Below, piece after piece: positions 2,673 to 50,736 of a DNA stretch of 64,000 nt (positions are counted from its first letter, which is position 1; each line of letters begins with the position of its first letter). The notes under the pieces were generated by a model. That model was given only the letters and a program-made list of their open reading frames with translations. It ran no database searches and was not told the DNA's origin. Origin of the DNA: a virus (Duplodnaviria; Heunggongvirae; Uroviricota; Caudoviricetes); the IMG/VR virus record IMGVR_UViG_3300025602_000002, positions 102,718 to 166,717 of that record. One strand, 5' to 3'. Both the position numbers and the translations under genes were made by a program.

Positions 2673-2676
2673 ATTG

Positions 2677-2752
2677 TGGCCGGGACAGGGCTCGAACCTG
2701 TAGCTGACAGGGATTTAGAGTCCCCCGCTCTATCCAATTGAGCTACCCAGCC
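2677..2752 (-). tRNA. Amber suppressor tRNA (anticodon CTA); amino-acid identity undetermined
   Basis: GGCTGGG TA GCTC AATTGGATA GAGC G GGGGA-CTCTAAA-TCCCT GTCAGCT ACAGG-TTCGAGC-CCTGT CCCGGCC A. Positions 34-36 of the 7-nt loop are CTA, with U33 and A37 present. The acceptor stem pairs with one G-U. Confidence 0.7.
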
Positions 2753-7303: not shown

Positions 7304-7840
7304 TTATTCTTTATATAGTTGATGTCCTATAATATAGCCAAAGATACTTCCGTCGAGTAATCTTCCAGCCAACTCATACTCAGCTTTACAAATGTGTTCT
7401 CTAACTTTACCGCTACTTGCGTGAGTATACTCTGAAATCTTTCCTAAATCAATCGACTCTATAGCTGCGCATTTTTTAATTTCATCAATATCCTGCCACT
7501 TATGAACTTCTAACCCAGTATCATCATCGCCTACATAAATTACAATATTCACATTATAATACATAATCTGTATATGATTAATTAAACTCATCATATACGT
7601 ATGGTTATAATGTAATATAAAGTTATTTGGGAAAGCTTTAGCACACATTGCTACTTTGTCGTTGTAATCGCTTTGAAGAGGTTGTTCTATTTTAAAGGGA
7701 TTAAATGACGGGCAAATAAGTAATAAATCTGAACTAGGGTATTCGGAGTTATATATTTTATTATTTAAGTATTCAACAGCTGCCATATGTCCCAAGTGAG
7801 GAGGATCAAATGACCCCCCGTATATGTGAATTGTTCTCAT
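7304..7840 (-). CDS. Nicotinamide/nicotinate mononucleotide adenylyltransferase
   Basis: N-terminal motif IYGGSFDPPHLGHM, the (H/T)xGH motif of this family. Confidence 0.75.
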   Translation of the reverse strand: MRTIHIYGGSFDPPHLGHMAAVEYLNNKIYNSEYPSSDLLLICPSFNPFKIEQPLQSDYNDKVAMCAKAFPNNFILHYNHTYMMSLINHIQIMYYNVNIVIYVGDDDTGLEVHKWQDIDEIKKCAAIESIDLGKISEYTHASSGKVREHICKAEYELAGRLLDGSIFGYIIGHQLYKE

Positions 7841-8433
7841 TATTTCATCCTTATATATTCGTAATTTGGAGATTCCATAAAAGATAATCCTGCTGCAAAT
7901 GACAGAAGTCTGCTTGAGATTTCTACTTTTTTTGCTTTTTCAGAGGCTATGAAACTAAGTAAATTATAACCATTAATTAAGATTATTTGGTCTATATCTT
8001 CAAAGTCTCCTAACGACTGTTGCTCTGGTAAGTAACTTCCTAAAGCTCCCATTACTAAATGAGTTGCTTCATCTGACATTCCTGCGGTATTGATGGCTGC
8101 AGGAAATACTCTACAAGCCCCGTCTACTTCATATCCAGTTTCCTCCAACAATTCTCTACGCATAGCGTCTTCTGGAGTTTCTCCCTCTTCTATCATACCT
8201 GCTGGAAATGACCAAATGTAGTTATCTAACGCAGGTCTCCACTCCTTAATTAGTAAGAATCTTCCAGAGCGGTCATGAAATACTCCCGCTACAGACTTTT
8301 GGTTTCCAATTCTTCTAACTATTTCCCAATCAGTAGTTTCTCCAGCTTCATTTTCTAGATTTAATGTTTCAGCTATTACATGTTGGGGCTCTATTAAAGC
8401 GTCTGATACAAATTTAATCTTAATTTTTGGCAT
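7840..8433 (-). CDS. Nudix hydrolase, possibly ADP-ribose pyrophosphatase
   Basis: Nudix box GMIEEGETPEDAMRRELLEETG. Confidence 0.75.
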   Translation of the reverse strand: MPKIKIKFVSDALIEPQHVIAETLNLENEAGETTDWEIVRRIGNQKSVAGVFHDRSGRFLLIKEWRPALDNYIWSFPAGMIEEGETPEDAMRRELLEETGYEVDGACRVFPAAINTAGMSDEATHLVMGALGSYLPEQQSLGDFEDIDQIILINGYNLLSFIASEKAKKVEISSRLLSFAAGLSFMESPNYEYIRMK

Positions 8434-9224
8434 TAGGCTATGTCCCTTAAAAAGCTTGGAATATTATCGCGTTTATGACGGCTATTGTTTATCATACTTT
8501 CGATATTATTCATAACTTCTACAGAAACCGGAGATGGTACATTTTCACAGTCCATAGTACTCCACCAAATCAAATAAGAATCTAGTTCTTGGTATGTAAA
8601 TCCAAATTCTTGTTCATCAGTTTGTCCTTCCCATAATCCCGCAGAAGCTACCGCATTTGCATATTCGTTAGGTAGCTCTAATTCTCTAGCTATTTCTCTA
8701 ACTTCAAATTTGTAAAACTCTAACAATGGTTCAAAATCTACTCCACCGTCTCCATATTTAGTAAAGTACCCTATTTCGTATTCAGACTTGTTAGTTGTTC
8801 CTATTACGAGGTTATTGGTACTATTTGCTAGCAGGTACAGTGCAGACATGCGGGCCCGGGCTTTCATATTCCCTTTTGTGAGGGTAGTTATTGCCTCTGT
8901 TTGGATATAAGTCATACCCTCTATCATGGCGTCTACAGAAGTGGTAATATCTATACAATTAAGGTTTAATTGGAGATGTTTTGCAAGAGCTAGTATATTA
9001 TCAGCTCCATGAAATAAATTAGATATTGAGGGAATAACTGTTTCATGGTAAGGCAGCCACACCGCCATAACCTTCTCTGGCCCTAAAGCTCTTTGAGCTA
9101 AAGCCGCAATTACTGCGGAGTCTACTCCTCCAGATAATCCTATGACTACCCCATCAGCACCTGCATCTTCTACTGTTCTTTTTATAAAATCTTGTAAGTC
9201 AATTATGTCTTGTCTAAGTTTCAT
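8433..9224 (-). CDS. nadE: NH3-dependent NAD+ synthetase
   Basis: PP-loop motif GLSGGVDSAV; length typical for NadE. Confidence 0.8.
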   Translation of the reverse strand: MKLRQDIIDLQDFIKRTVEDAGADGVVIGLSGGVDSAVIAALAQRALGPEKVMAVWLPYHETVIPSISNLFHGADNILALAKHLQLNLNCIDITTSVDAMIEGMTYIQTEAITTLTKGNMKARARMSALYLLANSTNNLVIGTTNKSEYEIGYFTKYGDGGVDFEPLLEFYKFEVREIARELELPNEYANAVASAGLWEGQTDEQEFGFTYQELDSYLIWWSTMDCENVPSPVSVEVMNNIESMINNSRHKRDNIPSFLRDIA

Positions 9225-9241
9225 CTGTTTTCCTTTTTAAA

Positions 9242-9640
9242 TTAAGCAAAGCAGTTGTTTAATATGGTAACCGCCCTGTGTATGTTGTTATCTATGTAAG
9301 CTATTCCTCCTGCAGCATTTACTAACTCTACAGTAGCTTTTAAACTTTTGAGCTGTCCTTTATCAAATCCATCAGGCCTAACGTGCAATATAGTTCGTTT
9401 GCCGTGGGTGTGTGCGCTATTTACAACTTCTGCTATGGAAAATACTCCTTGCATTTCTTTAGAAATAAGATAAAAATGTACATTACATTTATTGTCTTTT
9501 TCATCCATTTCTATTGCTTGGCACGCCTCTGTCCAGTCTTCCACATCTGGATTAAAGTAGTCTATAGTTAGTTGAGGAATTATTTGATTCCTCCAGGTTG
9601 TATGTGCGCAAGTGCCTCCTAAAAATACTCTGTTTATCAC
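9242..9640 (-). CDS. Hypothetical protein, possibly nucleoside 2-deoxyribosyltransferase-like fold
   Basis: 132 aa with an N-terminal MINRVFLGGT Rossmann-like start. Weak. Confidence 0.3.
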   Translation of the reverse strand: MINRVFLGGTCAHTTWRNQIIPQLTIDYFNPDVEDWTEACQAIEMDEKDNKCNVHFYLISKEMQGVFSIAEVVNSAHTHGKRTILHVRPDGFDKGQLKSLKATVELVNAAGGIAYIDNNIHRAVTILNNCFA

Positions 9641-9816
9641 TGTTCCTTTCCTTTTTTACTGTTTAAATCATCTTGGATATTGTTATAAGTTTTTAACAAT
9701 TTAGCTTTTTCTTTGGCTCGTTTTTGATCATCTCCAATAGCCCATAATTTTAGAAACCCAGTCCATGTGACTTGTGGTTTTTCTTTCTTTTCTTTCATTT
9801 ATCCTCTTTGTTATTA

Positions 9817-9905
9817 GTGGCTAGGACAGGACTCGAACCTGCATACGCACCATGCGTCCACTATATAGTATATCTACTGAAGTGTTACTGAGTCGAACAG
9901 CCTAC
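9817..9905 (-). tRNA. tRNA-like 3' half or degenerate tRNA
   Basis: Canonical T-arm GCAGG-TTCGAGT-CCTGT and an acceptor 3' strand CCTAGCC-A, but no complementary 5' acceptor strand could be found. An internal hairpin ACGCA-TGG-TGCGT is present. Confidence 0.25.
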
Positions 9906-9950
9906 TACGCGAAGATGTTTCCCAATTACATCACCTAACCATTTTTTTTG

Positions 9951-10023
9951 TGGGCCCTGCTGGACTCGAACCAGCATCCTACACATTATGAGTGTGTTGC
10001 TCAGCCAATTGAGCTAAAGGCCC
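9951..10023 (-). tRNA. tRNA-Met(CAT), elongator or Ile2-type
   Basis: Acceptor GGGCCTT/AGGGCCC, anticodon stem ACACA/TGTGT with loop CTCATAA, T-loop TTCGAGT. Confidence 0.75.
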
Positions 10024-10116
10024 TGGAGGAGAGGACAGGGATCGAACCTGCAGACCCCCTTGCGGGGGCGCACCGGTTTTCAAGACCGGCAGAATACCAT
10101 TCTCTTACACCTCTCC
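10024..10116 (-). tRNA. tRNA-Ser(TGA), class II
   Basis: Acceptor GGAGAGG/CCTCTCC, anticodon stem CCGGT/ACCGG with loop CTTGAAA, long variable arm GCGCCCCCGCAAGGGGGTC, encoded CCA. Confidence 0.7.
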
Positions 10117-10210
10117 GTAAAGAGCGACGCGATACTTTTTTCTGCAGTTATTATATTGCGCGCTCCCATCTCCTTCTGCTCTTACACGCAAGCGATGGCA
10201 GATGAGTCTG

Positions 10211-10282
10211 TGGCGAAAGATGGAATCGAACCACCGTCGCGTGGATCTTCAATCCACCGCTCTACCCCTGAGCTACCCCGCC
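10211..10282 (-). tRNA. tRNA-Phe(GAA)
   Basis: Anticodon stem GTGGA/TCCAC with loop TTGAAGA, T-loop TTCGATT. The acceptor stem has three G-U pairs. The 5' end overlaps the stop of CDS 10273..10776. Confidence 0.55.
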
Positions 10283-10776
10283 GGAGTATTTAATAATTTA
10301 ATTGCTTGTTCTACATGCTCATCTTGTAGACCTAAATCTGTTTTTGTTTGTACTAGTCGATCCATTAAATGCTCCATGTCTGAGTCATCGTCCAAAATTA
10401 TGAAGGAATCGGCTCTTTCGTGGTAATGTTCTTTAGAGAACTCAGGATCTGCGTCGTATTCGGCATTATGCTCATCAAGCCATTGTTGAATTTCTATGCC
10501 TCTTCTTTTATGTAGTCTTGGGGTACTCTTCCCTATTACGAAGGGTAAATTGAATCCCAAGGCAGCAAATAGATGTCTAAACATAAATGAATCACCATGA
10601 AGTCTCCAAGTTGAGGATACTACTATTTGTGCTCCAGTTGCGTCAATTATTTGCTTTAAGCGTTCTACTAGCGTTATGTCTGGAAGCCATACATTTCCTA
10701 ACTTTTCTTCATGTCGTTTATGTACCGACTCACGATTATTGAGTACGCCGTCGATATCTAAAAATATTACTTTCAA
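10273..10776 (-). CDS. HAD-superfamily phosphatase
   Basis: Motif I (V)IFLDIDGVLN. A TTG start is likely. The TAG stop lies within the 5' end of tRNA-Phe. Confidence 0.5.
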   Translation of the reverse strand: MKVIFLDIDGVLNNRESVHKRHEEKLGNVWLPDITLVERLKQIIDATGAQIVVSSTWRLHGDSFMFRHLFAALGFNLPFVIGKSTPRLHKRRGIEIQQWLDEHNAEYDADPEFSKEHYHERADSFIILDDDSDMEHLMDRLVQTKTDLGLQDEHVEQAIKLLNTPAG

Positions 10777-11133
10777 TTATTCAATTCCTTCTTCTTTTTT
10801 CCATTTCTGGTAACGTTCAACTCTTTCCAAATATATCTCATACTCGGCTCGAGTTCCGCCTTTGCACCCTCCGTGACCGTCTGATCTGATCTGCCAACCA
10901 ACAAAGGCATAATGATCCTTGCATTTAGCTTCATATTTCGCTAATTCGTCTTCTTCAATAGGAAAAAAGTCATAAATTTCTGTTAAACGTTTAAAGGTGT
11001 AGTTGTCATGAGCGTTTGCTCTTGTGCCGTCTGAATATTTTATAGGTTTATAGCTTCTATAGCAATTGTTTGATTCGTCTAATTCCCATATATAGGAATC
11101 GTCTGGCCTGACTATATATTTTGGATTTTTCAT
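10777..11133 (-). CDS. Hypothetical protein
   Basis: ORF of 118 aa, same frame as and adjacent to the HAD phosphatase. Confidence 0.4.
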   Translation of the reverse strand: MKNPKYIVRPDDSYIWELDESNNCYRSYKPIKYSDGTRANAHDNYTFKRLTEIYDFFPIEEDELAKYEAKCKDHYAFVGWQIRSDGHGGCKGGTRAEYEIYLERVERYQKWKKEEGIE

Positions 11134-11153
11134 TTTTTAGTTCCTAAGTTAAT

Positions 11154-11242
11154 TGGGGTGTCGGACGGGATTTGAACCCGCATGAGGAGCAACTCCAACT
11201 CGGGTCACAGCCGAGTGCATTACCAAATCTGCCACCGACAAC
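11154..11242 (-). tRNA. tRNA-His(GTG) with an encoded G-1 and a long variable arm
   Basis: Anticodon stem CTCGG/CCGAG with loop CTGTGAC. The extra 5' G pairs with discriminator C73, which is the His identity element. CCA is encoded. The 17-nt variable arm and a U1-C72 mismatch are unusual. Confidence 0.5.
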
Positions 11243-11243
11243 G

Positions 11244-11327
11244 GGCTGATGGTAGGATTCGAACCTACGTGGACTTTCGTCACCTGATTACAAATCAGGA
11301 CCTTTCGACCGCTCAGGTAACACCAGC
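11244..11327 (-). tRNA. tRNA with anticodon TGT (Thr-like) and class-II-like long variable arm
   Basis: Acceptor GCTGGTG/CATCAGC, anticodon stem CCTGA/TCAGG with loop TTTGTAA, T-arm GTAGG-TTCGAAT-CCTAC. The architecture is atypical. Confidence 0.45.
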
Positions 11328-11337
11328 TCTATTTAAA

Positions 11338-11362
11338 AGTGGGGACGCTTGGCCCCCACGTA
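11338..11362 (-). terminator. Rho-independent terminator downstream of the NAMPT gene
   Basis: Hairpin GTGGGG-ACGCTTG-GCCCCCAC followed on the minus strand by TTTTAAATAG. Confidence 0.5.
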
Positions 11363-11363
11363 T

Positions 11364-12509
11364 TTAAACCTTTAATATTTGTTTACATAACGCAATCTCG
11401 TCTGGATCGCCTGTATGTTTTCCCGGGGAATCTGACAACTTAATAGCTGGTTCCCATACATCATTTAATTTAACAGCGTTAATTTTGATTACCATATTCA
11501 ATGGTGTAACGTCTGTATCATTAGTGAAGTTGGTACCAATTCCGTAAGCCGTTTTAATGTGCTTATTCACTTCTTTTTCGATGTGTACCGCTTTTTCGAG
11601 ATTTAAACTGTCTGAAAAGATTATTAATTTACTTTTCGGATCAATGTTTAAATGCTCATAGTGGTTAATAATTTTGTTAGCAAACACAAGCGGGTCCCCA
11701 CTGTCTTGCCTCACACCGTCAAATAGTTTAGAATACTTCATGGCAAATTCTTTAAGAAAAACGTCTGTAGTAAAGGTATCTGGTAAAGCTGTTCCCAGAC
11801 TTCCTTGAAACACTTCTACCCATTTCTCTAATACCATAGTAGTTGCCATCTTGTAACCGTATAGGCGTGATAAGACCATATATACTTCGTGAGCTTGTGT
11901 ACCTGTTGGGGTTAAATTATATTTTTTGGCAAAATGAACATTAGAGGTTCCTACCAATCCATGCTTTAAAATATTAAGAGTTTTATCATGTACGTCATAA
12001 GAGTGCCTTCGTCTAGTTCCGAAGTCGGCTACGCTTAAATGATTATCGTGTATAATTCTCAATTTTTCTATATTCTGTTTTTCTAACTCATACAGCGGGC
12101 TTAATTCCCCATTAGACATCTCTGAAATAATAGCCATAATAGGTACTTCCCACAGTATAGTCCTATACCAGGGACCTCTAATACATATCTCAAATTGATG
12201 TTGTTTACCGGGTTCATAAATTACTTCTACTTCAGAAGAGTCATACGCATACCCTTTTAAAAAGTCCCTATACACGGGAGTGAAATAATAACATTTCTTT
12301 TTTAAAAAAGTTGCTTCTGAATCAGTTAACCGTAGTGATCCCATTGCGTTAATATTGCTTATCAATTTTGTAGCAAACGAGTCACTAAACTCAACTGGAG
12401 TTCTCAATATCCACTTGTATTCTACTTCCAGGTTTGGAAATTGCTGACAAACAAACATTTGTTGTGTAAATTTATATATGTCGTTATCTAAAATTGAATT
12501 AATTAACAT
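11364..12509 (-). CDS. nadV: Nicotinamide phosphoribosyltransferase (NAMPT/NadV-like)
   Basis: 381 aa, consistent with NadV homologs (call from family-level resemblance, no specific motif cited). Part of the NAD salvage cluster. Confidence 0.8.
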   Translation of the reverse strand: MLINSILDNDIYKFTQQMFVCQQFPNLEVEYKWILRTPVEFSDSFATKLISNINAMGSLRLTDSEATFLKKKCYYFTPVYRDFLKGYAYDSSEVEVIYEPGKQHQFEICIRGPWYRTILWEVPIMAIISEMSNGELSPLYELEKQNIEKLRIIHDNHLSVADFGTRRRHSYDVHDKTLNILKHGLVGTSNVHFAKKYNLTPTGTQAHEVYMVLSRLYGYKMATTMVLEKWVEVFQGSLGTALPDTFTTDVFLKEFAMKYSKLFDGVRQDSGDPLVFANKIINHYEHLNIDPKSKLIIFSDSLNLEKAVHIEKEVNKHIKTAYGIGTNFTNDTDVTPLNMVIKINAVKLNDVWEPAIKLSDSPGKHTGDPDEIALCKQILKV

Positions 12510-12802
12510 TATTTGGTATCCTTTCCAGAGTGTATTGTACGTAATACGGTTAGGCTGGAAGAACCGTCAACCACCTCTATTATACAACGCTCGATAGCAT
12601 AGTCTTTCAATAAAAAGTGTCTTTCTGCTATCTTTCTCCAACCGTAGTTATCGTATCCTTGAACGTCTATTTTAGTGGGACTAACTTTAGTTATTGCCCA
12701 CCTACGTTGTGTCCAGTATGACGGAATGTGGTCTTCGCCAGTACTAGCTCGTACCGTTATAACGTCATCTACTTTTAATTTAAACATCTGTTTCCTCTCC
12801 AT
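12509..12802 (-). CDS. Hypothetical protein
   Basis: ORF of 97 aa; its stop overlaps the nadV start (ATGA overlap). Confidence 0.4.
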   Translation of the reverse strand: MERKQMFKLKVDDVITVRASTGEDHIPSYWTQRRWAITKVSPTKIDVQGYDNYGWRKIAERHFLLKDYAIERCIIEVVDGSSSLTVLRTIHSGKDTK

Positions 12803-12940
12803 TAAGTTTATCGAGTTTTCTACAAATTTGTAATAGAAGTATATCTGTAAGGGTTAGTCTGCCATTTCCAAATTTGGTTTCCAAAATAAGTTGTAAATCC
12901 TCATCTATGGTAGCTTCTAAAGGTAGTATAACCTCACTCA

Positions 12941-13276
12941 TTAATAAACCTTCTCGAGTATTTCCCAACGTGCCTCGGGAATATTAATTACTTGAACTAT
13001 TTCGCCATTGACAAAAAAAGTTAGTTTGTTGTCACCTATTGACACACGATCCGCTAAGTATTCTTTGTCATATTTAATATTATAAGCTTTGTCATAAACT
13101 GTAAGAGTATAGGTAGTTCTAGAATCATTTCCATAACCTAATTCTGTTTTCGTACCATTCGCATCTATAACACCAGAATTAAAAAGCTTTGGTATTGCCA
13201 CTGAGCCTATAATCCCTGCAATTACTAGAACAATAATTAGTTCTATTATTGTAAATCCTTTTTTACTTCCATTCAT
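12941..13276 (-). CDS. Type IV pilin-like (prepilin N-terminus) protein
   Basis: N-terminus MNGSKKGFTIIELIIVLVIAGIIGSVAIP matches the class III signal (G|FTLIE). Confidence 0.4.
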   Translation of the reverse strand: MNGSKKGFTIIELIIVLVIAGIIGSVAIPKLFNSGVIDANGTKTELGYGNDSRTTYTLTVYDKAYNIKYDKEYLADRVSIGDNKLTFFVNGEIVQVINIPEARWEILEKVY

Positions 13277-13724
13277 TTTCTTTTAGTTCCTTTCTTACTT
13301 TCATTAATGCTTTTCCTAAAAGGTTTGTACCTTTACCATTTTTTCCGATGCCCCATATTGCGTCGTTCCATTCAGCCGCGTCTTCTATTAATTCTGCATC
13401 TTGTGTACATAGTAAAATCTTTTTGTAAAGATCTATTTTGAATTTTTCTCTTAAGCACATAACCATAATGTCATATTTTACTTCTTCCCAATCTGGGCGA
13501 AGATTTACTTTATTACCCGCACGTTTAGATTTGCCAGGGGTTTTTAACTGTGCTATTTCTTTACGTATTGTGTTATTAAATGTTTTATGTGCTTGAAACG
13601 CATGCTCTACTGTTGGATATTCAATACCTTCTATAGTAATAGGGGAATGTGCAAAATTAGAAAAATATTGATCATAGCCTGATGGCTTCTTTGCGGAGAA
13701 AATTATTTGGTTTGTGTTTTTCAT
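13263..13724 (-). CDS. NADAR-domain (YbiA-like) protein
   Basis: Motif FSNFAHSPITIEGIEYPTVEHAFQAHKT resembles the NADAR/DUF1768 core. Confidence 0.45.
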   Translation of the reverse strand: MKNTNQIIFSAKKPSGYDQYFSNFAHSPITIEGIEYPTVEHAFQAHKTFNNTIRKEIAQLKTPGKSKRAGNKVNLRPDWEEVKYDIMVMCLREKFKIDLYKKILLCTQDAELIEDAAEWNDAIWGIGKNGKGTNLLGKALMKVRKELKENEWK

Positions 13725-13754
13725 TTGTTAGTTTGATTTTTATTATTTAAAAGT

Positions 13755-13838
13755 GTGGGCAGAGAAGGATTCGAACCTCCGAACCCCGTAGGGACCAGAT
13801 CTACAATCTGGCGCTTTTGACCGCTCGGCCAGCTGCCC
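13755..13838 (-). tRNA. tRNA-Tyr(GTA), class II
   Basis: Anticodon stem CCAGA/TCTGG with loop TTGTAGA, variable stem CCC/GGG, T-loop TTCGAAT, acceptor GGGCAGC/TCTGCCC. Confidence 0.65.
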
Positions 13839-13845
13839 AACTTAA

Positions 13846-14553
13846 TTATCGTTCTCTTCCATGGTAGTCGTTCGGATATAAATCTTCTGATAAGTCTGAT
13901 TGCCAGTACTCATGCGTATTTACATCCATGATAGTAAGTTTTCCTTCCCAACCTGATCCGGTGTCTAACATCCATAGATTGGAAATATTTAAAGGTTTAT
14001 CCGTTCCAAACATTCCTGTAGTTGTATGCCCAACGAATACCTCTTTATAATCTTTAAATTCACGCTTTTGAGTTACGTAAATTTTTGCCACTTCAATGAT
14101 GTGACGATTCCAATACAAATTATACGGATCCTGATCCCGGATAGGGACCTTTTGATCGAATCCTCCGTGTACGTAGATTTTGTTCTCATCATCGATGTGG
14201 TAAAATACTGTTTTGTTACGTAGATAATGTAGGTGCTTAGTTCTCCATTCTAGTGGGGCTGACACGTAGCTGGCAATTGTAGCCATACCACCTTGTCTAG
14301 TCCACAATGAGGGAGTTTGTCCATATTCTAACCACCCAAGTAGCCATACGTCGTGATTACCTATAACCTATATTAAATTCTTAATCTTTAAAAGTTCTTC
14401 GAAACACTTTGCCGTATCTGGCCACCCGTCATTTATATCGCCAAGAAAGACTAATGTATCCTCCTCATAATTGAAGTTAGAACGTTCGAAACATTGGAGC
14501 ATGCCCTGGTAATTACCATGTACGTCTCCCAGTACAAATATTTTATTTTTCAT
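13846..14553 (-). CDS. Calcineurin-like Ser/Thr phosphatase (PPP family) interrupted by one in-frame TAG at 14368-14370
   Basis: Track ORFs 14368..14553 and 13846..14307 share a frame. The translation reads ...GDVHGN...GDINDGW...KIKNLI-TAG-VIGNHDVWLLGWLEYG...HGGF. The PPP phosphoesterase motifs continue straight across the stop. Confidence 0.6.
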
Positions 14554-14789
14554 CCTTCATCCTTTGTAATGTGGTTTATACAGGCAGCTATTCTACTATC
14601 CTGGTAAAATGGATCCATTGCTGTAGCTCTAATCTCTTCTGCTACTTCCGGATAAAGTATATAAAGTGCATTAAAAATACATTGCCCACGTCTCCAGAGG
14701 GGGTTGTTTAGTCCCATTTTATTTGTTGTTTGAAAGAGGGTTTTCATTTCCTCTTGAGTTAATTTATTCATTACCAACGTCTCCCGCAC
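14550..14789 (-). CDS. Hypothetical protein
   Basis: 79 aa; its TGA stop overlaps the ATG of the phosphatase (ATGA overlap). Confidence 0.4.
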   Translation of the reverse strand: MRETLVMNKLTQEEMKTLFQTTNKMGLNNPLWRRGQCIFNALYILYPEVAEEIRATAMDPFYQDSRIAACINHITKDEG

Positions 14790-15825: not shown

Positions 15826-15834
15826 ATAAATTAG

Positions 15835-15906
15835 AGCCTAGGGAAGGAGTTGAACCTCCATTTCTCTTAGCGGACTAAGAGCGTCTTACCATTAGACGAC
15901 CACGGC
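15835..15906 (-). tRNA. tRNA-like element with an 18-nt anticodon arm (possible 8-nt anticodon loop)
   Basis: D-arm CGTC-TAATGGTAA-GACG and T-arm GGAGG-TTCAACT-CCTTC. The anticodon arm CTCTT-AGTCCGCT-AAGAG is one nt longer than canonical. The acceptor stem has two central mismatches. Confidence 0.35.
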
Positions 15907-17098: not shown

Positions 17099-17776
17099 TT
17101 ACCAAGAAACTTTTCTTATTTTTAATAGAAAATCATTTACTAATTTTGAGTTAGCTTCTTTTTTTGTAGACTTATTAAACGCGTCTTCTAGTTTTTCTTC
17201 CCAAGAGCTACAAGTTTTTATAACCTCTGGTATAGTAGATTCGCCTTCCTTATATTTTCTGCAAAGAATGCCTACTTCTGTATCAGCTATTCTGGCTGTA
17301 AAATCGCCAGTTTGTAATAGTTCGTATCCATTATATAACATTCTTAACCAGGCCGCTGATGATTTTCTTTTTCTAATGGTATCTAATTCTACATTTCCAT
17401 TACTAAGGGCTTCATCATTTTCTAAAAGCTTTTTGCGTTGCGATTGAGCATAACCCCTGTACGAGTGGAAAACTAATTTAGAACTCCAAACGTCTGGAAA
17501 TAGACTTCTTAACTCTTCACACCAGTTCTCGTTTTCTGTAGTAAATGTCGCTTTAAAAGTTTCCAGAATTGTAGGATTACTTCTTAATGCGAAATGTAGA
17601 AATCTAGCTAATTCCCAGGTATCTGCTGGATCCTTTGGATCGCTGGGCTGGTGCTCTGGTAAAGCTAAAATATTTGAAGTAGTCTCAATAAATACAGTTT
17701 TATAATCGAAATCACTTATAGGAGTATCTAACCCATGCAATCTACTTCCTACTAACGCTCTCATTAATAATCTCAT
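17099..17776 (-). CDS. Pol-beta-superfamily nucleotidyltransferase
   Basis: GS-x-D-x-D motif GSRLHGLDTPISDFDY near the N-terminus. Confidence 0.45.
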   Translation of the reverse strand: MRLLMRALVGSRLHGLDTPISDFDYKTVFIETTSNILALPEHQPSDPKDPADTWELARFLHFALRSNPTILETFKATFTTENENWCEELRSLFPDVWSSKLVFHSYRGYAQSQRKKLLENDEALSNGNVELDTIRKRKSSAAWLRMLYNGYELLQTGDFTARIADTEVGILCRKYKEGESTIPEVIKTCSSWEEKLEDAFNKSTKKEANSKLVNDFLLKIRKVSW

Positions 17777-17804
17777 TTATAATTCCCTATTGTTAATAAT
17801 TGTT

Positions 17805-17836
17805 AAAAAAAAGACCCAGCGAGTGATCGCCGGGCC
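17805..17836 (-). terminator. Rho-independent terminator
   Basis: Hairpin CCCGGCGA-TCAC-TCGCTGGG followed on the minus strand by an 8-T run. Confidence 0.5.
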
Positions 17837-17901
17837 TAATTTCAAAGATATAAAGCGGTTAAGCTTTATAATGTCTTTTATTGACGATCTACATAGAAGC
17901 G

Positions 17902-18288
17902 CTAGCCTTCGCTAACTGTGAACTCCTGTGGAGTGAATTTCCCTTTTACAGGTATGGCGATGGTTAAAACACCACGAACTAGCGAACTAGTTAATTTTCC
18001 ATAATTAAAATGTTCACCGTTCTGTAATGGAAATTCGTTATAGAAACCTTTACAGAAAGTTCCTTTACCAATCTCTTTATCCGGTCCAGCTGTCACTAAC
18101 AGGCGGTCATGAGTTGAAGGCGAATTGCCGAACGCAGTTCCAGCCTTAGCTATTCTAATTTTAATGTTAGAAGCCTGATAACCTGGTACTAATAGCTCAA
18201 CCATTACGTTTGGCTCGTTCCAGTACAGTACGAAGTCTACTGCATCATATTTTTTATCGTCACTTAATTTTGAGTATAAATTGCTCAT
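17902..18288 (-). CDS. Hypothetical protein
   Basis: 128 aa, TAG stop. Confidence 0.4.
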   Translation of the reverse strand: MSNLYSKLSDDKKYDAVDFVLYWNEPNVMVELLVPGYQASNIKIRIAKAGTAFGNSPSTHDRLLVTAGPDKEIGKGTFCKGFYNEFPLQNGEHFNYGKLTSSLVRGVLTIAIPVKGKFTPQEFTVSEG

Positions 18289-18300
18289 TTGTTGTCTTGA

Positions 18301-19992
18301 TTATTTCATTTTTAGTTGATACATCCGATTCATTTCATAGAACCGAACAATATTGCCCTCGTGGGCCAGTGTCATCGACGACTTGATGGCAGAGTCTTTG
18401 TAGACCTGCACATCACTTGAAGCCTTAGCGCGAAACATTTCTAAAGCGCCATCTTCATGTATACTTATAGTTAATCCGTTAGGTAGGCAGATAAAATTCA
18501 ACATATTATCTGCGTCCTTCAAGATTCTTATATCATATTTTTTGAAATTTTCATCGAATACGATAATAAATTTATCATACTTGCTGCCTGATTGTCCTAT
18601 TATCATACAAACCCTGTCTCGGCATTTTGCATCAATTATCTTGTACTTATCTAGTTCAGGAATTGCTACAATTGCACATTTGTTGGGTGCGTATGGTAAA
18701 TATAAATGAGTTTTACCTAAAATACTAGAACATAATACTCCATCTAACATTTCTGTAGAATTATTGAATATTTCCCAAGTATTTAAAATATAAAACGTAG
18801 GCTTTGAGCCGGTATCTAATACATCTATTTCAAAAAATCTATCCTTGTTTACGCCATATAGCCTATTTTCGTATATCATAGTTTTTTCAACCTTAATATT
18901 TGTACTATGATAAGGAGATTGGCTATCTTCCAATGATCTGTATACTAAAGATTCATCCTTAGTTTTCACAAGAAACGTCTTTTGAGACATACTGTGTGAA
19001 AAAACCTTGGAGGTGGTATCTTTAATATAACTATTATTGTTATATATGACAACATCTTTTTTGGTATATATTATATACTGTCTACCAAAATAAGTGCAGT
19101 CAATTATGTCGCCAGGATAATCGTTTAATTGTTGTATTGTAAAATATTTGCTTCCGGTGTGTGTTGTTATTATAGGAGTTATTGGAAGTATAATGTACTG
19201 CCCTTTCATGTCTGGAGGAGTACTTCTATAACCATTTTCAAATACTTCTTTAAACCAATCATAATAACTCTTAGGTATATTTGTAAAGTCCCTTACTGCG
19301 CCCGGAACACGCGTTTCAGGGTTAAAGATTGATACGTTTGCTCTCATACGTTCTTCTAATGTAGCTCGTTTAAAGTGAGAATTCTTTCCCTTATATGGGT
19401 GAATTCCTATAAACAGTTGACAAGCTATTACAGCGAAGGAAAACCAATCTGAAATTTCTGTGAATTCTGTAGCATGCCAATCTCTAATAGAGGGCATAAT
19501 TACTGTAGCTGGATAATTAGGAGTTTGCCATGAGTTTACATCTATACAATAAGCAGTAGTATGCTTTCTAGTTTCTATTAAATAATTTAATTCGTTACCA
19601 TCGACCATTATTATGTCATGATCGTGCACATGACTAATTGTATCCTTAATATTTGTAACTAATTTAGTAACGGTATCGTTATTTAAATTGTTTCTATTAA
19701 GATACGCAGATGTAAACATTCTTGGTAATGGAATAGACTGAGGTACAGTCTGCATCATAAATCCTATTAACGTGTTTTTTGTAGTGTAAATTAAATTCTC
19801 AGGTTTTATAATGGTATTCTTAGTAAGAACTGACAGTTCCCTAATTTTTTCTTCAGGTATCATAGTTTTTGGGTCATGAAATATTTTATAAGCTCTTCCA
19901 CCTTTTACATATACTTTACCCTCTCCACCTTGAGCTACAAAATTAGAGTCTAATAATGATACTTGCCCCTTTCCTTGTACTAAAACCTTCAT
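18301..19992 (-). CDS. Ser/Thr protein kinase-like protein
   Basis: Glycine-rich loop with an invariant Lys (AQGGEGKVYVKGGRAYKIF) and a catalytic-loop-like segment HDIIMVDGNELN. Confidence 0.5.
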   Translation of the reverse strand: MKVLVQGKGQVSLLDSNFVAQGGEGKVYVKGGRAYKIFHDPKTMIPEEKIRELSVLTKNTIIKPENLIYTTKNTLIGFMMQTVPQSIPLPRMFTSAYLNRNNLNNDTVTKLVTNIKDTISHVHDHDIIMVDGNELNYLIETRKHTTAYCIDVNSWQTPNYPATVIMPSIRDWHATEFTEISDWFSFAVIACQLFIGIHPYKGKNSHFKRATLEERMRANVSIFNPETRVPGAVRDFTNIPKSYYDWFKEVFENGYRSTPPDMKGQYIILPITPIITTHTGSKYFTIQQLNDYPGDIIDCTYFGRQYIIYTKKDVVIYNNNSYIKDTTSKVFSHSMSQKTFLVKTKDESLVYRSLEDSQSPYHSTNIKVEKTMIYENRLYGVNKDRFFEIDVLDTGSKPTFYILNTWEIFNNSTEMLDGVLCSSILGKTHLYLPYAPNKCAIVAIPELDKYKIIDAKCRDRVCMIIGQSGSKYDKFIIVFDENFKKYDIRILKDADNMLNFICLPNGLTISIHEDGALEMFRAKASSDVQVYKDSAIKSSMTLAHEGNIVRFYEMNRMYQLKMK

Positions 19993-20768
19993 AATATTAT
20001 TCCAGCAATTCCAATATCGTCTGCGTTAGTAATATAATTTCTATTCCAGGTTTTCTTAAGAAACCTTAGTTTTCTTACAGCGAATGCTCCTGCGGCACTT
20101 GGGAAATGAGTGATGATATCATCAATCACTACTCTCTCTCCAGTATCCCTATCTATTACTTGGTCTATACCATCAGTAGTTAAAATTACCGAAGCTATCG
20201 GGTAATCAGGCTGAAATATAAAGGGCATTCCAGTTTCTAATGCTACATTGGTAGGATCCTCGTCACCATCATTCATGTGAACAACTGTTTGTCCTTTGTC
20301 CTTTAAACACTCTTTGTATTCTTCCTGATCTTTTCGAGTAATGTTATACGCAGGATAGTATGGAGTATTATGAGGTGATTGAATATCTATATGAAGCGGT
20401 CCTTCTTTTGAATCTAAGAAACAATGTCCATCTCCGGCCATAAGAATATAAAAGCTTTGTTTTTCTTTATTATAGATAGCTACCAACACAGTTGACAGCA
20501 GCATACGGCGGTCCAGGCCTTGGACATCAGTATAACCTTTACATAATTGAAGTTGCCACTCTAATTTTTGACGAGTCAGCTCTCCAAATTCTCTAATGGC
20601 TTGTTCTACACTATGGGCTATTAATCTAGCTCCAAAATCTGTGTGAGGAGCGCTTGAACACCCATCACATACAATAATATAAGCTATCTCATCTGTTTCC
20701 CCATGAAGTGTATAATCTTCACAAACCCGATGAGTGGCCCCTTGAATAAAATGTGAATCTATGTTCAT
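19989..20768 (-). CDS. PP2C-family Ser/Thr phosphatase-like protein
   Basis: GATHRVCEDY...IVCDGCSS...DDIGIAGIIL resemble PP2C motifs. The TGA stop overlaps the kinase ATG. Confidence 0.45.
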   Translation of the reverse strand: MNIDSHFIQGATHRVCEDYTLHGETDEIAYIIVCDGCSSAPHTDFGARLIAHSVEQAIREFGELTRQKLEWQLQLCKGYTDVQGLDRRMLLSTVLVAIYNKEKQSFYILMAGDGHCFLDSKEGPLHIDIQSPHNTPYYPAYNITRKDQEEYKECLKDKGQTVVHMNDGDEDPTNVALETGMPFIFQPDYPIASVILTTDGIDQVIDRDTGERVVIDDIITHFPSAAGAFAVRKLRFLKKTWNRNYITNADDIGIAGIIL

Positions 20769-20797
20769 AGTTTTCCTTTTAATAAGAACGAACGTAA

Positions 20798-20865
20798 CAG
20801 CGCGGATTGGATTCGAACCAATGTCTAGGGTATCCCCTAACTCTACCCTGCTGAGATACCGCCCC
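20798..20865 (-). tRNA. Short tRNA-like element (about 68 nt) with a tetraloop central arm
   Basis: T-arm ATTGG-TTCGAAT-CCAAT and a 6-of-7 acceptor stem. The central arm is TAGGG-GATA-CCCTA. Confidence 0.25.
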
Positions 20866-20896
20866 GTTACGCCGTTTCTTACGTACGTTTTGTAAG

Positions 20897-21661
20897 TTAG
20901 AATTTCATACTAGCTTGAGCAGAAGGTCCGCCAGTGCCAAGTGAATGGCTCTGTGAACTAATGCTTTGGCTAATGAAATTCCCTAATTTTGCAAGAGTTT
21001 TAGCATTTGCATTGCCCGCATCAATATATTGCGTGAGGTCTGCATCATCTTTAAACTCTTTTAATAGTTGTGAAACCCTAGAGCCCCAACCATGGTTGCC
21101 GTCTGTGCCTATCCCGATTAATACGGAAATTAAAGATTCAATTGATTCTTCGGCACGTTTAATGGAGTGTATTCTGTCCTTTACATTAGTGGCTGTCATA
21201 GTCGAAGAATTATCATCTCCGTCTGTAATAACATACACGGCAGCATTTACACTGTATTCCTGGTCCGCTAGGGATTTACCATACTGTTCAATTGATCCGA
21301 TCATATCATAAGTGGCATCAAACAGGTTAGTAGCTGCGTCAGGTACTAATTTCCCTGAATACTCACTTAAATCTATATCGTTTACAGGCTTAAATCCATG
21401 GATTTCCAAAATATCAGTCTGACTATTAAACAGTGTTACCCTAACAAGTAGATTTTCAGAACGTGCAGACATTTTACATGCCCCCACTATTTCTTCAATC
21501 ATCTTTTGTAACATAGTTTCATAACCGCCCACTGATCCGGTAATGTCAACGACTATACCTACTAAGGTATATTCGGAGGCTTCTAGTTCATCTAAGCCTA
21601 TTGCTGAAAACTTAAAATTTCCAGCTCCTAATAAGTCCACACTTTGCATGGTATCTACCAT
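20897..21661 (-). CDS. von Willebrand factor A (vWA) domain protein
   Basis: MIDAS motif DITGSVGG in the N-terminal region. Confidence 0.55.
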   Translation of the reverse strand: MVDTMQSVDLLGAGNFKFSAIGLDELEASEYTLVGIVVDITGSVGGYETMLQKMIEEIVGACKMSARSENLLVRVTLFNSQTDILEIHGFKPVNDIDLSEYSGKLVPDAATNLFDATYDMIGSIEQYGKSLADQEYSVNAAVYVITDGDDNSSTMTATNVKDRIHSIKRAEESIESLISVLIGIGTDGNHGWGSRVSQLLKEFKDDADLTQYIDAGNANAKTLAKLGNFISQSISSQSHSLGTGGPSAQASMKF

Positions 21662-21691
21662 TGATAATCTCCTTTATCTTTGTGTGTTTGT

Positions 21692-22555
21692 TTATTTCAA
21701 AAAGTCTTCAGCTTTACAGATCTGCATACCGCGTGAAACCATTTCCGTTACAAAGTCGGTACCCAATTTCTCAAACCCAGTAACATTTGAAGAAGTGTCT
21801 TCAAGCAGTACTAGTTTTTTGATATTCTCTTCTCCGAAGTTGTCTGCAATATCTTTAACTGTATTAGCTACACAGTGTGATAGAGCCTGACCTGAAAGGG
21901 CAATTATGTCTGCGTCTTTTAAAAGTTTTAAAAGAGTGACGTTTAACTGCGTAGTAGGATCTTCATCGTCAGGTACATCAGCAATAACGCCAGAGTAATG
22001 TTCTGTCCAAGGGTTGTGTCCTTTTGTAACATAGTTTATTCTGCGTTTTCTGCTTTCTTCCCAGGCTTCAAGTTCTGCGTTTACAACATCTACTACATTG
22101 TGGCCCCATGTGCCCACTTTACAATGTGGTGGCCATATACACAGAAGGTATCTGTCGTTGTCTTGGAGAGCTTGCAGGTAAGCTCTGGCTCTTGGAATTC
22201 GATCTGGGCTAGTCGGTGTCCAAACTGATCCGTTTAAGTCGTCTAGACTTATAAGTGTAAACGGGCCCGGATGTTCTCCAGCACTATTCATCCAAAATAA
22301 TGGATGCGAAATATCCAACAATTGGTGGGTATCTAGCGTCACGTGGATCCCAGTAATTTTACCTCTTAAGCGGTTAAGCACCATAGCTAACCTCTCAGAG
22401 TCCTCATAAGCCCCCGGTACCGGTAATTCTGGTTCTGGAAGTCGTAATCCTATATCCGCCAAATTTATGCCGGCTTTTTGAAGTAAGACTAAATCATTGT
22501 TTCGATCCATAAAAGAGTTTTGTGGATCAATTATTAAGAAGTGCAATTTTTGCAT
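21692..22555 (-). CDS. Isochorismatase-family hydrolase, possibly a nicotinamidase
   Basis: N-terminal LIIDPQNSF and a catalytic-Cys context ALSHCVANTV. Confidence 0.45.
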   Translation of the reverse strand: MQKLHFLIIDPQNSFMDRNNDLVLLQKAGINLADIGLRLPEPELPVPGAYEDSERLAMVLNRLRGKITGIHVTLDTHQLLDISHPLFWMNSAGEHPGPFTLISLDDLNGSVWTPTSPDRIPRARAYLQALQDNDRYLLCIWPPHCKVGTWGHNVVDVVNAELEAWEESRKRRINYVTKGHNPWTEHYSGVIADVPDDEDPTTQLNVTLLKLLKDADIIALSGQALSHCVANTVKDIADNFGEENIKKLVLLEDTSSNVTGFEKLGTDFVTEMVSRGMQICKAEDFLK

Positions 22556-22609
22556 TTTGTTTTTTTTCCTTTTCTAACTTGTATGTTATTATTTCGTCAG
22601 TTTATTAAT

Positions 22610-23524
22610 TTAGAAGTTTCCGTAGTTTACTTGGAAACATTGTAGACCTAAGTCTTTACGCCATAGACCAACTACTTGGTCTCTATCATCAAACACGCAA
22701 AATACGTTGTATTTATCTTTAACGTGTTCATCATAAAGTTTGCGTTTAAGAATTGAATCTCTTATATTATGCTCAAACAATGGTCTCATGAACATCTTCC
22801 AATGAGGAAACGGAAGGTTTGCTTTCAAAAACTGTCTAGTTTCTGAAAGGTATTTTTCCGATCTTCCAGATAAAAAGATTATTTGGTATCCCTGTTTGTC
22901 CATAACGTGAAGAATTTCCCCCAAAATCGCATTGTAAGTATCGTTCTCACAAGTAGAGGCGTCATAAGGGTTACGGCCTTTAAGGAATGCCATCGTGCCG
23001 TCTAAGTCACAAATGATTGCCTTAGGTAAGCCGTCTACCAACTCAACCGTGCCTGGAGGCTCAGGATAGTCGTGAGGCTCATCTTTCTTTAGAAACCTAC
23101 TGTACATATCATAAATAACTTTAGAGCCTACATGGGCCGATCCTGTACGTAATGCGTCTCGATCAATGGCATCAAATACATCTGTAGGGAATTCTCTAAC
23201 CACAACTAATACGTCGTGCTTAACTTCCCGTAAAATGTTATAGTCCGCCACTATTTTTCTAATATGCTCCTCATTTGAGCTGTGTAAGTTTGTATCATCT
23301 ACGAATACTGATCTTCCGGCATCTAAGTATCTAAAGATTAAAGAGTCTCTAATTGCTTTAATTATTTTCTCATTTCCTTTAGAGTATACTCCACCATCAA
23401 CCATGCTTCGTAGACTATCCCTATTTACACGTTTGTATGTATCTGGCATTTTATCCATCATATCTACGGCATACGAAGTCTTACCGCTTGCGGGTAACCC
23501 CCGTAGTATTATTACTTGTCTCAT
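22610..23524 (-). CDS. pseT: Polynucleotide 5'-kinase / 3'-phosphatase (T4 Pnk-like)
   Basis: Walker A GLPASGKTSYA and a C-terminal HAD motif IICDLDGTM. Confidence 0.8.
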   Translation of the reverse strand: MRQVIILRGLPASGKTSYAVDMMDKMPDTYKRVNRDSLRSMVDGGVYSKGNEKIIKAIRDSLIFRYLDAGRSVFVDDTNLHSSNEEHIRKIVADYNILREVKHDVLVVVREFPTDVFDAIDRDALRTGSAHVGSKVIYDMYSRFLKKDEPHDYPEPPGTVELVDGLPKAIICDLDGTMAFLKGRNPYDASTCENDTYNAILGEILHVMDKQGYQIIFLSGRSEKYLSETRQFLKANLPFPHWKMFMRPLFEHNIRDSILKRKLYDEHVKDKYNVFCVFDDRDQVVGLWRKDLGLQCFQVNYGNF

Positions 23525-23548
23525 TTTGTATTTCCTTTTATTTATGGC

Positions 23549-23932
23549 TTAGTCTCTATCCCATAACTTTATAGAACTCTCCGCCGTACTCTGGGCGTGT
23601 TTGTACTCAACGTCAGAGTATTGGTATAAAGATGCTTTCCACATATCTTTATTTCGTGCAAATTGTTCAAGATGCTCGGGAGCTATCACTTCTGTTATTG
23701 ACAAACAGTTTCCAGCTGATTCACCTAACTGTGAACTATGTACGCGAGTATTTACATACAAAGTGTCAGAGTCAAAGTCTAACCAGTCGAAAGAGCGCCC
23801 CTCACCCTTTGGAATGAATTTAGTATTTTTGAGTTGGCATATCTCTAACACTGAAGGCTCATATAACCCAGGAAGCACCATTAATACTATATCGCCATCT
23901 TTCAGTGTTTTTAAAAGCTGGTTACTTTTCAT
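23549..23932 (-). CDS. Hypothetical protein
   Basis: 127 aa, between Pnk and the RNA ligase. Confidence 0.4.
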   Translation of the reverse strand: MKSNQLLKTLKDGDIVLMVLPGLYEPSVLEICQLKNTKFIPKGEGRSFDWLDFDSDTLYVNTRVHSSQLGESAGNCLSITEVIAPEHLEQFARNKDMWKASLYQYSDVEYKHAQSTAESSIKLWDRD

Positions 23933-24997
23933 TTATTCTCCAAACTTAATTAAGAAGTCAGGGTTAATTACTTTAAAACTAAAGCTACCATCTCTCGCTC
24001 TAATCACAATTCCCTCTCTTGGGATATCAGGATTTAGAAGGCTTGGGCCTTTAGAAAGCTCTACTAATTCGTCTACTGTATGGTTTAACACCATCTTTGG
24101 ATTAAGGACAGGTACAGTATTAAATATTCTATCTAACCCTCGTACGCGAACTTCCCCCTCAGTTGTGTAGTCCCCAAATATAAGATTTAGAAAGCTCTCA
24201 ATACTTCCAAAGCCACCATCTTGTATAGTAAAAGCGTTAAACATTTTTACTTCTGTAGCAGACAATTTGTATTTATTTTTCTGAATCCCTGGCCCCAGTA
24301 ATTCTCCTTGGAAAATTACATTTATACCAAGTTTAGACATTTTCTCTTCTGCGTCAATATCTCTAGCGACTTTCCAGAAAGAATTTTTGTCATTCTCTAT
24401 TAGGTCAAGCTTCCGACTGCATACTCCGAAAGGTGTTGCTTTTCGGTAGTTAGGTGCATAATAAAAGGTAGATGACGATCCATCTAATTTCTCTGTTATG
24501 TAGCACTCTGTTCCTGCCCATTCTTTTATTTCATCTACAAGATTCTGTACACGTTCTTCATCCGTCTTAGGAATCCAGGAAGGTCTGTGGCCTTTAATCT
24601 GGCCACTTAAGCATGCTGGAATGGGTGCTTCATATTTTACTACTTTCAAAAGTTCACTTACGTCTGTTCCCACTTCGGGGCCATCGGCGAGCTCTTCGAA
24701 AGTATCTAATGGCATGGCTAGCCCTTGACTAATTTGCTTACGCAATTTTATAGTTCGTAAGCGATAACCTCTTGTGCCGTCATCTATTGTTTTGACACCG
24801 TTTTTCTTTAAGAATTCAAACGGCTCTATTTCTGGCAACAAAGAGTCCACTTCAAAGTAGACGCATTTATCACCTATTTGAAATTCCCCCTTCTTAACTA
24901 CTAGATGCCAGCCTTTTACAGTTGCTTTTTCAATTACATCTGCTCCAGAGATAGGCTCTAAATTAGCTATGAGTTGGATTGTTGCTAAATGTCTCAT
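23933..24997 (-). CDS. ATP-dependent RNA ligase
   Basis: Nucleotidyltransferase motif I ITEKLDGSS (KxDG); 354 aa; sits next to the Pnk gene. Confidence 0.65.
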   Translation of the reverse strand: MRHLATIQLIANLEPISGADVIEKATVKGWHLVVKKGEFQIGDKCVYFEVDSLLPEIEPFEFLKKNGVKTIDDGTRGYRLRTIKLRKQISQGLAMPLDTFEELADGPEVGTDVSELLKVVKYEAPIPACLSGQIKGHRPSWIPKTDEERVQNLVDEIKEWAGTECYITEKLDGSSSTFYYAPNYRKATPFGVCSRKLDLIENDKNSFWKVARDIDAEEKMSKLGINVIFQGELLGPGIQKNKYKLSATEVKMFNAFTIQDGGFGSIESFLNLIFGDYTTEGEVRVRGLDRIFNTVPVLNPKMVLNHTVDELVELSKGPSLLNPDIPREGIVIRARDGSFSFKVINPDFLIKFGE

Positions 24998-24998
24998 T

Positions 24999-25520: not shown

Positions 25521-25701
25521 TTGCAGCTATACCGCCTACAGCTAAAAATAATAAGACGAAGCCAAGCCACAGCGGGGCAGTTATCCACCACCAACTCCAT
25601 GTAATGACTCCAACTAACTTTAGGACAAGTAATACTATAAATAGTATGAATCCGGGATTTTTCATTTTTTCTCCGTTTGTTTTGGTTTTAAATATTTCCA
25701 A
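25501..25701 (-). CDS. Small membrane protein
   Basis: Two transmembrane helices, TAG stop. Confidence 0.35.
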   Translation of the reverse strand: MEIFKTKTNGEKMKNPGFILFIVLLVLKLVGVITWSWWWITAPLWLGFVLLFLAVGGIAAIASWLD

Positions 25702-26735: not shown

Positions 26736-26738
26736 TAT

Positions 26739-45820: not shown

Positions 45821-45823
45821 TTA

Positions 45824-50728: not shown

Positions 50729-50736
50729 GAGATACT

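Follow-up and report, generated by a model that had tools for sequence, protein, structure and literature searches.

An in-frame amber codon in a metallophosphoesterase gene of a marine jumbo phage that also encodes a tRNA with a CUA anticodon

We describe a metallophosphoesterase gene (lambda-PP/NinI/PnkP-phosphatase-like; 13846..14553, minus strand; 235 codons including one internal TAG) in a 64,000-nucleotide stretch of DNA from a marine jumbo phage, referred to below as the window. The TAG is real, the gene around it shows no further damage, and the codon is the one that a suppressor-type tRNA of the same phage would read. The interpretation that we place first, with even confidence, is that the gene carries a suppressible amber allele, the full-length yield of which follows the level of the phage tRNA(CUA); regulation shaped by selection takes perhaps a minor share of that interpretation.

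Results

One reading frame and one fold across the stop

The phosphatase frame runs from 14553 to 13846 and in translation holds only one stop within its 235 codons, the amber codon at codon 62 (14370..14368, minus strand), which has taken the place of an ancestral tyrosine; the stop codon of the gene itself is a TAA (13846..13848). A preliminary description of this DNA had placed two listed open reading frames in one frame, and our analysis bears this out: if the TAG terminates, the first (14368..14553, minus strand) gives a 61-residue N-terminal product with motifs I and II only, and the second (13846..14307, minus strand) would give 153 C-terminal residues from a TTG. Motif I (GDVHG, codons 9–13, 14515..14529) and motif II (GDINDG, codons 38–43, 14425..14442) precede the stop, and GNHD (codons 65–68, 14350..14361), VHGG (codons 128–131) and GH (codons 175–176) follow it on the same minus strand; the order of PPP-family motifs claimed for both sides of the stop is thus correct in the 235-codon frame. 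The TAG stands three codons ahead of GNHD (LKIKNLI-TAG-VIGNHD), and that motif does lie, as had been pointed out, in an uncalled stretch that is reached only by TAG readthrough: no start codon or ribosome-binding site (RBS) is present between the TAG and GNHD, and the first canonical in-frame start 3' of the TAG is the TTG at 14307, 21 codons downstream. As GNHD is missing from the 153-residue product, the C-terminal ORF alone cannot act as an enzyme, and as GNHD sits between the TAG and the next start, two separate pieces could not work either. Judged from the frame, a functional phosphatase would be possible only through TAG readthrough.

At its 5' end the gene overlaps its upstream neighbor (14550..14789, minus strand) by an ATGA at 14550..14553, in which the TGA stop of the upstream gene overlaps the phosphatase ATG; TGA is therefore a real stop in this minus-strand block. 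A tRNA-Tyr(GUA) gene (13755..13838, minus strand), given here for context only, lies 7 nt downstream of the phosphatase gene.

The joined product clears the PF00149 (Metallophos) cut-off of 21.5 bits with a score of 43.7. Its match to phrog_246, "NinI-like Ser/Thr phosphatase", spans the stop (residues 2–228, E=5e-44), and phmmer matches the product to lambda phosphatase (1G5B) at E=1.1e-10. The uninterrupted frame expected of a PF00149 member is broken at codon 62 by the TAG. All five metal/phosphate motifs are intact (G9DVHG13, G38DINDG43, G65NHD68, H129GG and G175H176), and their columns are invariant or nearly so among the phosphatase homologs. An AlphaFold model of the joined chain reached a pLDDT of 94.7 and a pTM of 0.92; in Foldseek it came closest to C. 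thermocellum PnkP (phosphatase domain, 4J6O) and lambda phosphatase (1G5B), both at E~2e-12 and a TM of about 0.7, followed by ApaH. The joined product is thus confidently modeled as a lambda-PP/PnkP-phosphatase fold, the binuclear metallophosphoesterase fold common to lambda PP, the phage phosphatases of phrog_246 and PnkP, and it has the motifs of that group (GDxHG, GDxxD, GNH(D/E), HGG and GH). Unlike lambda PP, NinI and PnkP, it is interrupted by a TAG, and the Arg of motif II is replaced by Gly (GDINDGW) here and throughout its subfamily. Because the structural neighbors include PnkP (an RNA-end phosphatase) and ApaH as well as lambda PP, we leave the substrate range wide; candidate substrates could be a protein, an RNA 2',3'-cyclic/3'-phosphate end or Ap4A. 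The earlier name "Ser/Thr phosphatase" is to be taken as the label of a family only.

The gene neighbors also set this phosphatase apart from the lambda PP/PnkP comparison set. Near it are PNKP, two RNA ligases, a Thg1-like enzyme and genes of NAD salvage, on the minus strand at 17099..27755, 37050..37769 and 7304..12509 with 23 tRNAs interspersed. The RNA-repair/tRNA toolkit consists of PNKP, the two RNA ligases, the Thg1-like guanylyltransferase and RlaP; the NAD-salvage set comprises NadE, NAPRTase, NADAR, a NUDIX enzyme and a nucleotidyltransferase. Also in this block, at 18301..20768 (minus strand), a gene for a 563-residue protein with a weak protein-kinase match shares an ATGA overlap with a gene for a PP2C-type phosphatase, the second phosphatase of the block and unrelated to the amber-split one.

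Several tRNA genes of the block have unusual features of their own. The tRNA-His (11154..11241, minus strand, 88 nt) and the tRNA-Thr (11243..11327, minus strand, 85 nt) are unusually long for class-I tRNAs. A tRNA-like gene at 15834..15906 (minus strand; Rfam tRNA, 38.3 bits) has an abnormal anticodon arm that can be drawn with an 8-nt loop, AGUCCGCU, or with a 7-bp stem and a UCCG tetraloop; it also has two acceptor-stem mismatches and is assigned a two-base anticodon, "cc", by ARAGORN.

Authenticity, fixation and origin of the amber codon

Split gene calls could come from an error of sequencing or assembly, or from an enzyme whose two pieces are translated separately, and they are all that speaks for these readings; with identical DNA in independent assemblies against the former, and a C-terminal piece that would lack a catalytic motif (no start or RBS between TAG and GNHD) against the latter, we find both hardly credible. 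The DNA of three other assemblies (L001, L002 and L006) is 100% identical to the window through the phosphatase gene. The 61-residue N-terminal fragment is found on 43 contigs and C-terminal fragments on 33+11+5+1+1 contigs, from NCBI, JGI, ENA and Logan, the longest contig with the split gene being 211,738 bp; an intact allele of this phage's gene was not found on any of the >40 contigs from several projects. One 235-residue database protein appears intact, with Gln at position 62; it is a code-15 translation of DNA that still reads TAG. As identical DNA in independent assemblies and a split gene on >40 contigs are not explained by a read error, sequencing or assembly error is excluded, and with it the error explanation that the preliminary description had named among the outcomes that would refute its reading.

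The phage population is nearly clonal, since a 51-kb contig from another sample (L012) differs from the window at 1 position in 20,462 bp. This one difference (window 13855, A/T) falls in the phosphatase, where an Arg of the C-terminal tail becomes Ser; as a check for relaxed selection, a sole SNP in 20.5 kb that is nonsynonymous and in this gene gives a weak hint of relaxed constraint. By coordinate arithmetic, scaffold_55 of ERZ23491642 exceeds the window by 123 bp somewhere between 17307 and 52956; an indel or a difference in repeat length between the assemblies could account for this. A megablast search of the region against 50,697 phage records gave no match, and a scan of metagenome contigs returned only ~50% relatives.

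An alignment of the joined product, which the preliminary description had proposed as a check, was made with 119 intact homologs of 45–67% identity, and 116 of the 119 have Y, L or F in the column of the TAG (Y 77, L 26, F 13, and P, M and A 1 each), with Q, K, E or W in 0/119. The nearest ortholog, P0001, shares 67% identity, lies in a syntenic locus rich in tRNAs (L003) and has TAT in this column, and the change is therefore a single T→G transversion from an ancestral Tyr codon; a look at relatives had also been proposed, and this sense codon leans against programmed readthrough. Identity to the ortholog is similar on both sides of the stop (37/61 before the TAG and 118/171 after it), and no second lesion in the gene was found in the motifs, the homolog alignment or the AlphaFold model. 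Downstream of the TAG we found no RNA structure (z=-0.05).

It is quite possible, if short of an even chance, that the allele is a recent nonsense pseudogene, i.e. a dispensable gene that was knocked out by the TAT→TAG change and hitch-hiked to fixation, with the nearby suppressor a coincidence and any product of readthrough without importance. Further lesions or lost catalytic residues, found neither in the alignment nor in the model, would have strengthened this explanation; in a population with 1 SNP per 20.5 kb, however, the mutation can be very young, and therefore no decay would be expected yet. The intact ortholog in the nearest relative and the nonsynonymous nature and location of the only SNP agree with a pseudogene, whereas the recurrence of the TAG allele, and never of a wild-type one, on >40 contigs of several projects does not.

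A tRNA with the amber anticodon

The claim that an amber suppressor tRNA lies 11 kb away holds: a tRNA gene with anticodon CUA (ARAGORN; Rfam tRNA, 58.9 bits) is present at 2676..2752 on the minus strand, the strand of the phosphatase, 11.1 kb from the 3' end of that gene. It sits 3 nt upstream of a tRNA-Leu(UAG) gene and is the only suppressor tRNA detected in 120.8 kb of this phage. The tRNA is a class-I cloverleaf with discriminator A73 and no encoded CCA; its 7-nt anticodon loop, CUCUAAA, is closed by A31:U39, and U33 and a purine at 37 agree with what is required of a suppressor tRNA. Its 9-nt D loop, 7-nt variable loop and 5-bp anticodon stem are not those of tRNA-Pyl, which has a short D loop, a 3-nt variable loop and an elongated anticodon stem and whose name ARAGORN gives from the anticodon only; the D and variable loops also rule out a class-II identity.

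The acceptor stem and T arm of this tRNA are nearly identical to those of tRNA-Leu(UAA) in the related phage locus L003, but it has the D arm and variable loop of a class-I tRNA; a blastn search against phage tRNAs returned mixed isotypes, and derivation from the tRNA-Gln, -Trp, -Lys or -Tyr of the phage was rejected for want of a close paralogue. An unrelated viral contig (IMGVR_UViG_3300042090_001801; L015 333..408, minus strand) also encodes a tRNA(CUA), which shares 36/39 nt of D stem and anticodon arm with the present one and has a Gln-type acceptor (U1:A72, G73) with encoded CCA; the resemblance suggests a suppressor module that is either shared or convergent. The nearest ortholog's 12.9-kb locus has no CUA tRNA among its 19 tRNAs.

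Leu, Gln and Lys are the candidates for insertion at codon 62. Class-I CUA tRNAs in E. coli usually insert Gln or Lys. From the homolog column, Leu would fit at this position, and Gln or Lys would not.

The tRNA also speaks against the pseudogene explanation, in that the stop is the very codon that this suppressor would read. A priori TAG would be ~1 in 3 or 4 of nonsense mutations, a share that is lower still in a genome of 37% GC, and with a CUA tRNA present some full-length protein would be expected even from a knocked-out gene.

TAG usage across the genome

To view the amber codon against the genome, we used a composite of 120,780 bp made of the window and four overlapping loci of the same phage (L010, L011, L013 and L014), which covers about 57% of the ~211-kb genome, including the tRNA-rich, RNAP and packaging/virion blocks. 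The TAG of the phosphatase is the only one in these 120.8 kb that splits a homology-supported gene. Other same-frame TAG junctions were rejected: those at 34136 and 56070 in the window and at -682, -22543 and 90690 in the flanks are gene boundaries with RBS and ATG, and the remaining ones are gene boundaries or antisense noise. TAG ends 21/130 minus-strand genes and 17/67 plus-strand genes (about 16–25%), often in the context AAGGAG-TAG-nnn-ATG, and no signal of backup stops was seen after TAG-ended genes (median extension 10 codons, vs. 7 for TAA and 11 for TGA).

Given a single intragenic TAG and a codon that ends about 16–25% of genes, TAG is not reassigned in the 57% of the genome examined. 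A genome- or block-wide reassignment of the crAss-like and Lak phage kind (code 15, TAG = Gln) would be in keeping with the CUA suppressor tRNA and with one pipeline that used code 15 on a short contig, and about 43% of the genome lies outside the composite; we nevertheless consider it very improbable, as there is one in-frame TAG in 120.8 kb spanning early, RNAP and packaging/virion blocks, as the TAG at the end of many genes is directly followed by an RBS and ATG, and as coding coverage, 0.848 under code 11, gains only 0.012 when the minus strand is read in code 15 (0.860), vs. 0.890 for code 4 on the plus strand. Because TAG is a normal terminator on both strands, its suppression cannot be very efficient. 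A genome otherwise free of in-frame TAGs had been named in the preliminary description as evidence against its reading; such is the case throughout these 120.8 kb, and it argues against the word "programmed". The solitary TAG and the genome-wide use of this codon as a working stop are likewise points in favor of a pseudogene.

In-frame TGA codons on the plus strand

Plus-strand genes contain many in-frame TGA codons. A cluster at 46369..51650 (plus strand), for which PHROGs gave no match, has 9; a plus-strand gene for a 725-residue protein has 4; PhoH (plus strand) has 1, opposite the Phe of GFLPG in 3B85; a gene for a 679-residue plus-strand protein has 2; the large terminase (TerL, plus strand) has 3, and 99% of its joined protein aligns to terminases. 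A fused beta-beta' RNA polymerase of 2,019 residues, a single reading frame on the plus strand (L010 3116..9082, equal to window -15730..-9671), has 5, one of them inside an Rpb2_3 domain match; public gene calls break it into 175, 598 and 1,026 residues. Outside the window, TGA-rich plus-strand regions lie at L010 3650..10402 and in L011/L014. For two proteins (P0131 and P0137) public pipelines had already translated TGA as W. In minus-strand genes TGA is a stop, six of them with ATGA-type overlaps, and coding coverage rises to the value given above when code 4 is applied on the plus strand. These data point to a block-wise code-4-like phage, with TGA as sense in plus-strand blocks and the standard code on the minus strand; the phosphatase is located in a standard-code block.

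The minus strand carries all 28 tRNAs in the composite and a tmRNA (L007 17093..17466; RF00023 in Rfam, 85.3 bits), the tag peptide of which is GRPAVKLAA. None of the 28 tRNAs in the 120.8 kb is a tRNA(UCA), and a tRNA-Sec match proved to be an ordinary tRNA-Ser(UGA). A tRNA-Trp(CCA) gene stands alone at ~69.5 kb of the window coordinates (L011 7063..7135), adjoining the start of a recoded block at 70.6 kb; we rejected it as a Hirsh-type TGA decoder, its D stem having, as read by eye, the ordinary U11:G24.

A relative with 67% amino acid identity to this phage (L023, DAOQAF010000001.1; 204,271 bp, binned as Bacteroidales) has its late genes intact under code 11. The residues that it has opposite the TGAs are three W in TerL, three Y in another protein and one L. 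Because the same genes are intact under code 11 in this relative, with mostly W or Y opposite TGA, the recoding is recent in the lineage and TGA stands for an aromatic residue, probably Trp. The bin of the relative hints at a Bacteroidota host.

Four further observations concern these regions. The TerL match of the relative is in two pieces about 1.2 kb apart, which may reflect an insertion or an intron. A tRNA at 45822..45893 (minus strand), on the edge of the TGA-recoded cluster, was detected by Rfam (58.7 bits) but missed by ARAGORN; it has an imperfect acceptor stem and an anticodon loop, AUAUUAA, with an apparent anticodon AUU. In L013 (8013..10008 and 11748..14087, both plus strand) a reverse transcriptase gene (RVT_1) adjoins a GP88-family gene, and near them is a gene for a 779-residue protein with an intein-splicing domain.

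Discussion

Our analysis suggests how a suppressible amber allele would operate in this phage. The gene would be an accessory metallophosphoesterase gene in a standard-code, tRNA-rich and presumably early minus-strand block; most ribosomes would stop at codon 62 and release an inactive 61-residue peptide; the tRNA(CUA) would compete with RF1, so that a fraction of ribosomes continues to the 235-residue enzyme; and the amount of enzyme made would track how much charged suppressor tRNA is present in the course of infection. Selection may either favor such an arrangement, as a timer or attenuator, or tolerate it, a nonsense mutation being near neutral where a suppressor is present, which is how phage recoding has been proposed to arise. 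In either case some full-length phosphatase is probably made by means of tRNA(CUA).

We favor the suppressible allele on several grounds: the stop is the codon read by the only suppressor tRNA detected in the phage; the gene shows no lesion besides the TAG, which every assembly seen has in fixed form; and the lineage is changing its use of stop codons, with TGA as sense in RNAP, PhoH and TerL. A phage-encoded tmRNA fits a phage that tampers with termination. Several observations weigh on the other side: this is the only intragenic TAG in 120.8 kb; the column at codon 62 is hydrophobic, and Gln or Lys from a class-I CUA tRNA would be a poor fit; the nearest relative keeps an intact ortholog, with no CUA tRNA in the tRNA region around it; and the TAG is without a readthrough-stimulating RNA structure. 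Moreover, the phosphatase may be dispensable, as the phage also has a PP2C phosphatase beside a kinase-like gene, a possible functional back-up that a pseudogene would have had at hand.

The preliminary description had proposed programmed amber readthrough. Part of that proposal is supported, in that readthrough would be required for function, the stop matches the suppressor tRNA, the allele is fixed, no other defect is present and the phage demonstrably gives another stop codon, TGA, a sense meaning elsewhere. The term "programmed" is not supported: the ortholog has TAT, the TAG is alone, TAG is a working terminator, and no RNA structure accompanies it.

Stop-codon recoding in phages with suppressor tRNAs has been described for crAss-like, Lak, "Agate", "Jade" and other phages, with a proposed order of events in which the suppressor tRNA comes first and in-frame stops come after (Borges et al., bioRxiv 10.1101/2021.08.26.457843), and block-wise dual codes in phages have been described by Pfennig et al. 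(bioRxiv 10.1101/2022.06.29.495998). The present phage resembles those phages in encoding a suppressor tRNA and having an in-frame stop in a conserved gene; in having its tRNAs in a standard-code block and RNAP, terminase and virion genes in a recoded block; and in its close relative on the standard code, its low GC and its hinted Bacteroidota host. It shows, in a marine jumbo phage, the block-wise use of two codes that those studies describe, and it adds one case to the suppressor-tRNA-linked in-frame stops already known. It differs from them in three ways: the recoded codon is TGA, with no tRNA(UCA) found in 120.8 kb; the suppressor reads TAG, which is still a common terminator; and the amber codon is a single one, in the standard-code block and not in late genes. 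This combination of a recoded TGA, a suppressor for TAG and a lone amber codon in a standard-code block is unusual.

Classical amber mutants are rescued by suppressor tRNAs, such as E. coli supE, supF and supP and the psu tRNA suppressors of T4, and the anticodon loop of supF is CUCUAAA with an A31:U39 closing pair. The phosphatase gene is like such mutants in that a single TAG is its only defect and its product would need a CUA tRNA in competition with RF1, and the tRNA(CUA) is like supF in both loop and closing pair. Unlike the classical mutants, the amber allele and the suppressor are natural here and fixed together in a wild phage population.

It is conceivable, though we think it unlikely, that the phage has taken the first step of a second stop-codon reassignment, in which TGA has already been recoded in the RNAP, packaging and virion blocks and the newly acquired amber suppressor, with a first amber-split gene now fixed, times or throttles the output of an early-block phosphoesterase. 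If true, one phage would possess a natural system that involves two stop codons.

In conclusion, the phosphatase, PhoH, fused RNAP, terminase and many plus-strand genes of this phage are fragmented in public annotations by gene callers that assume the standard code. If the split gene is a pseudogene only, the finding is an ordinary one; if the amber codon is read through, it would provide a natural example of one gene whose expression depends on a suppressor tRNA. In addition, the phage combines two codes in one genome with a suppressor (CUA) mismatched to the recoded codon (TGA), and the occurrence of a CUA suppressor together with TGA recoding bears on how reassignment starts, with the suppressor first and in-frame stops later.
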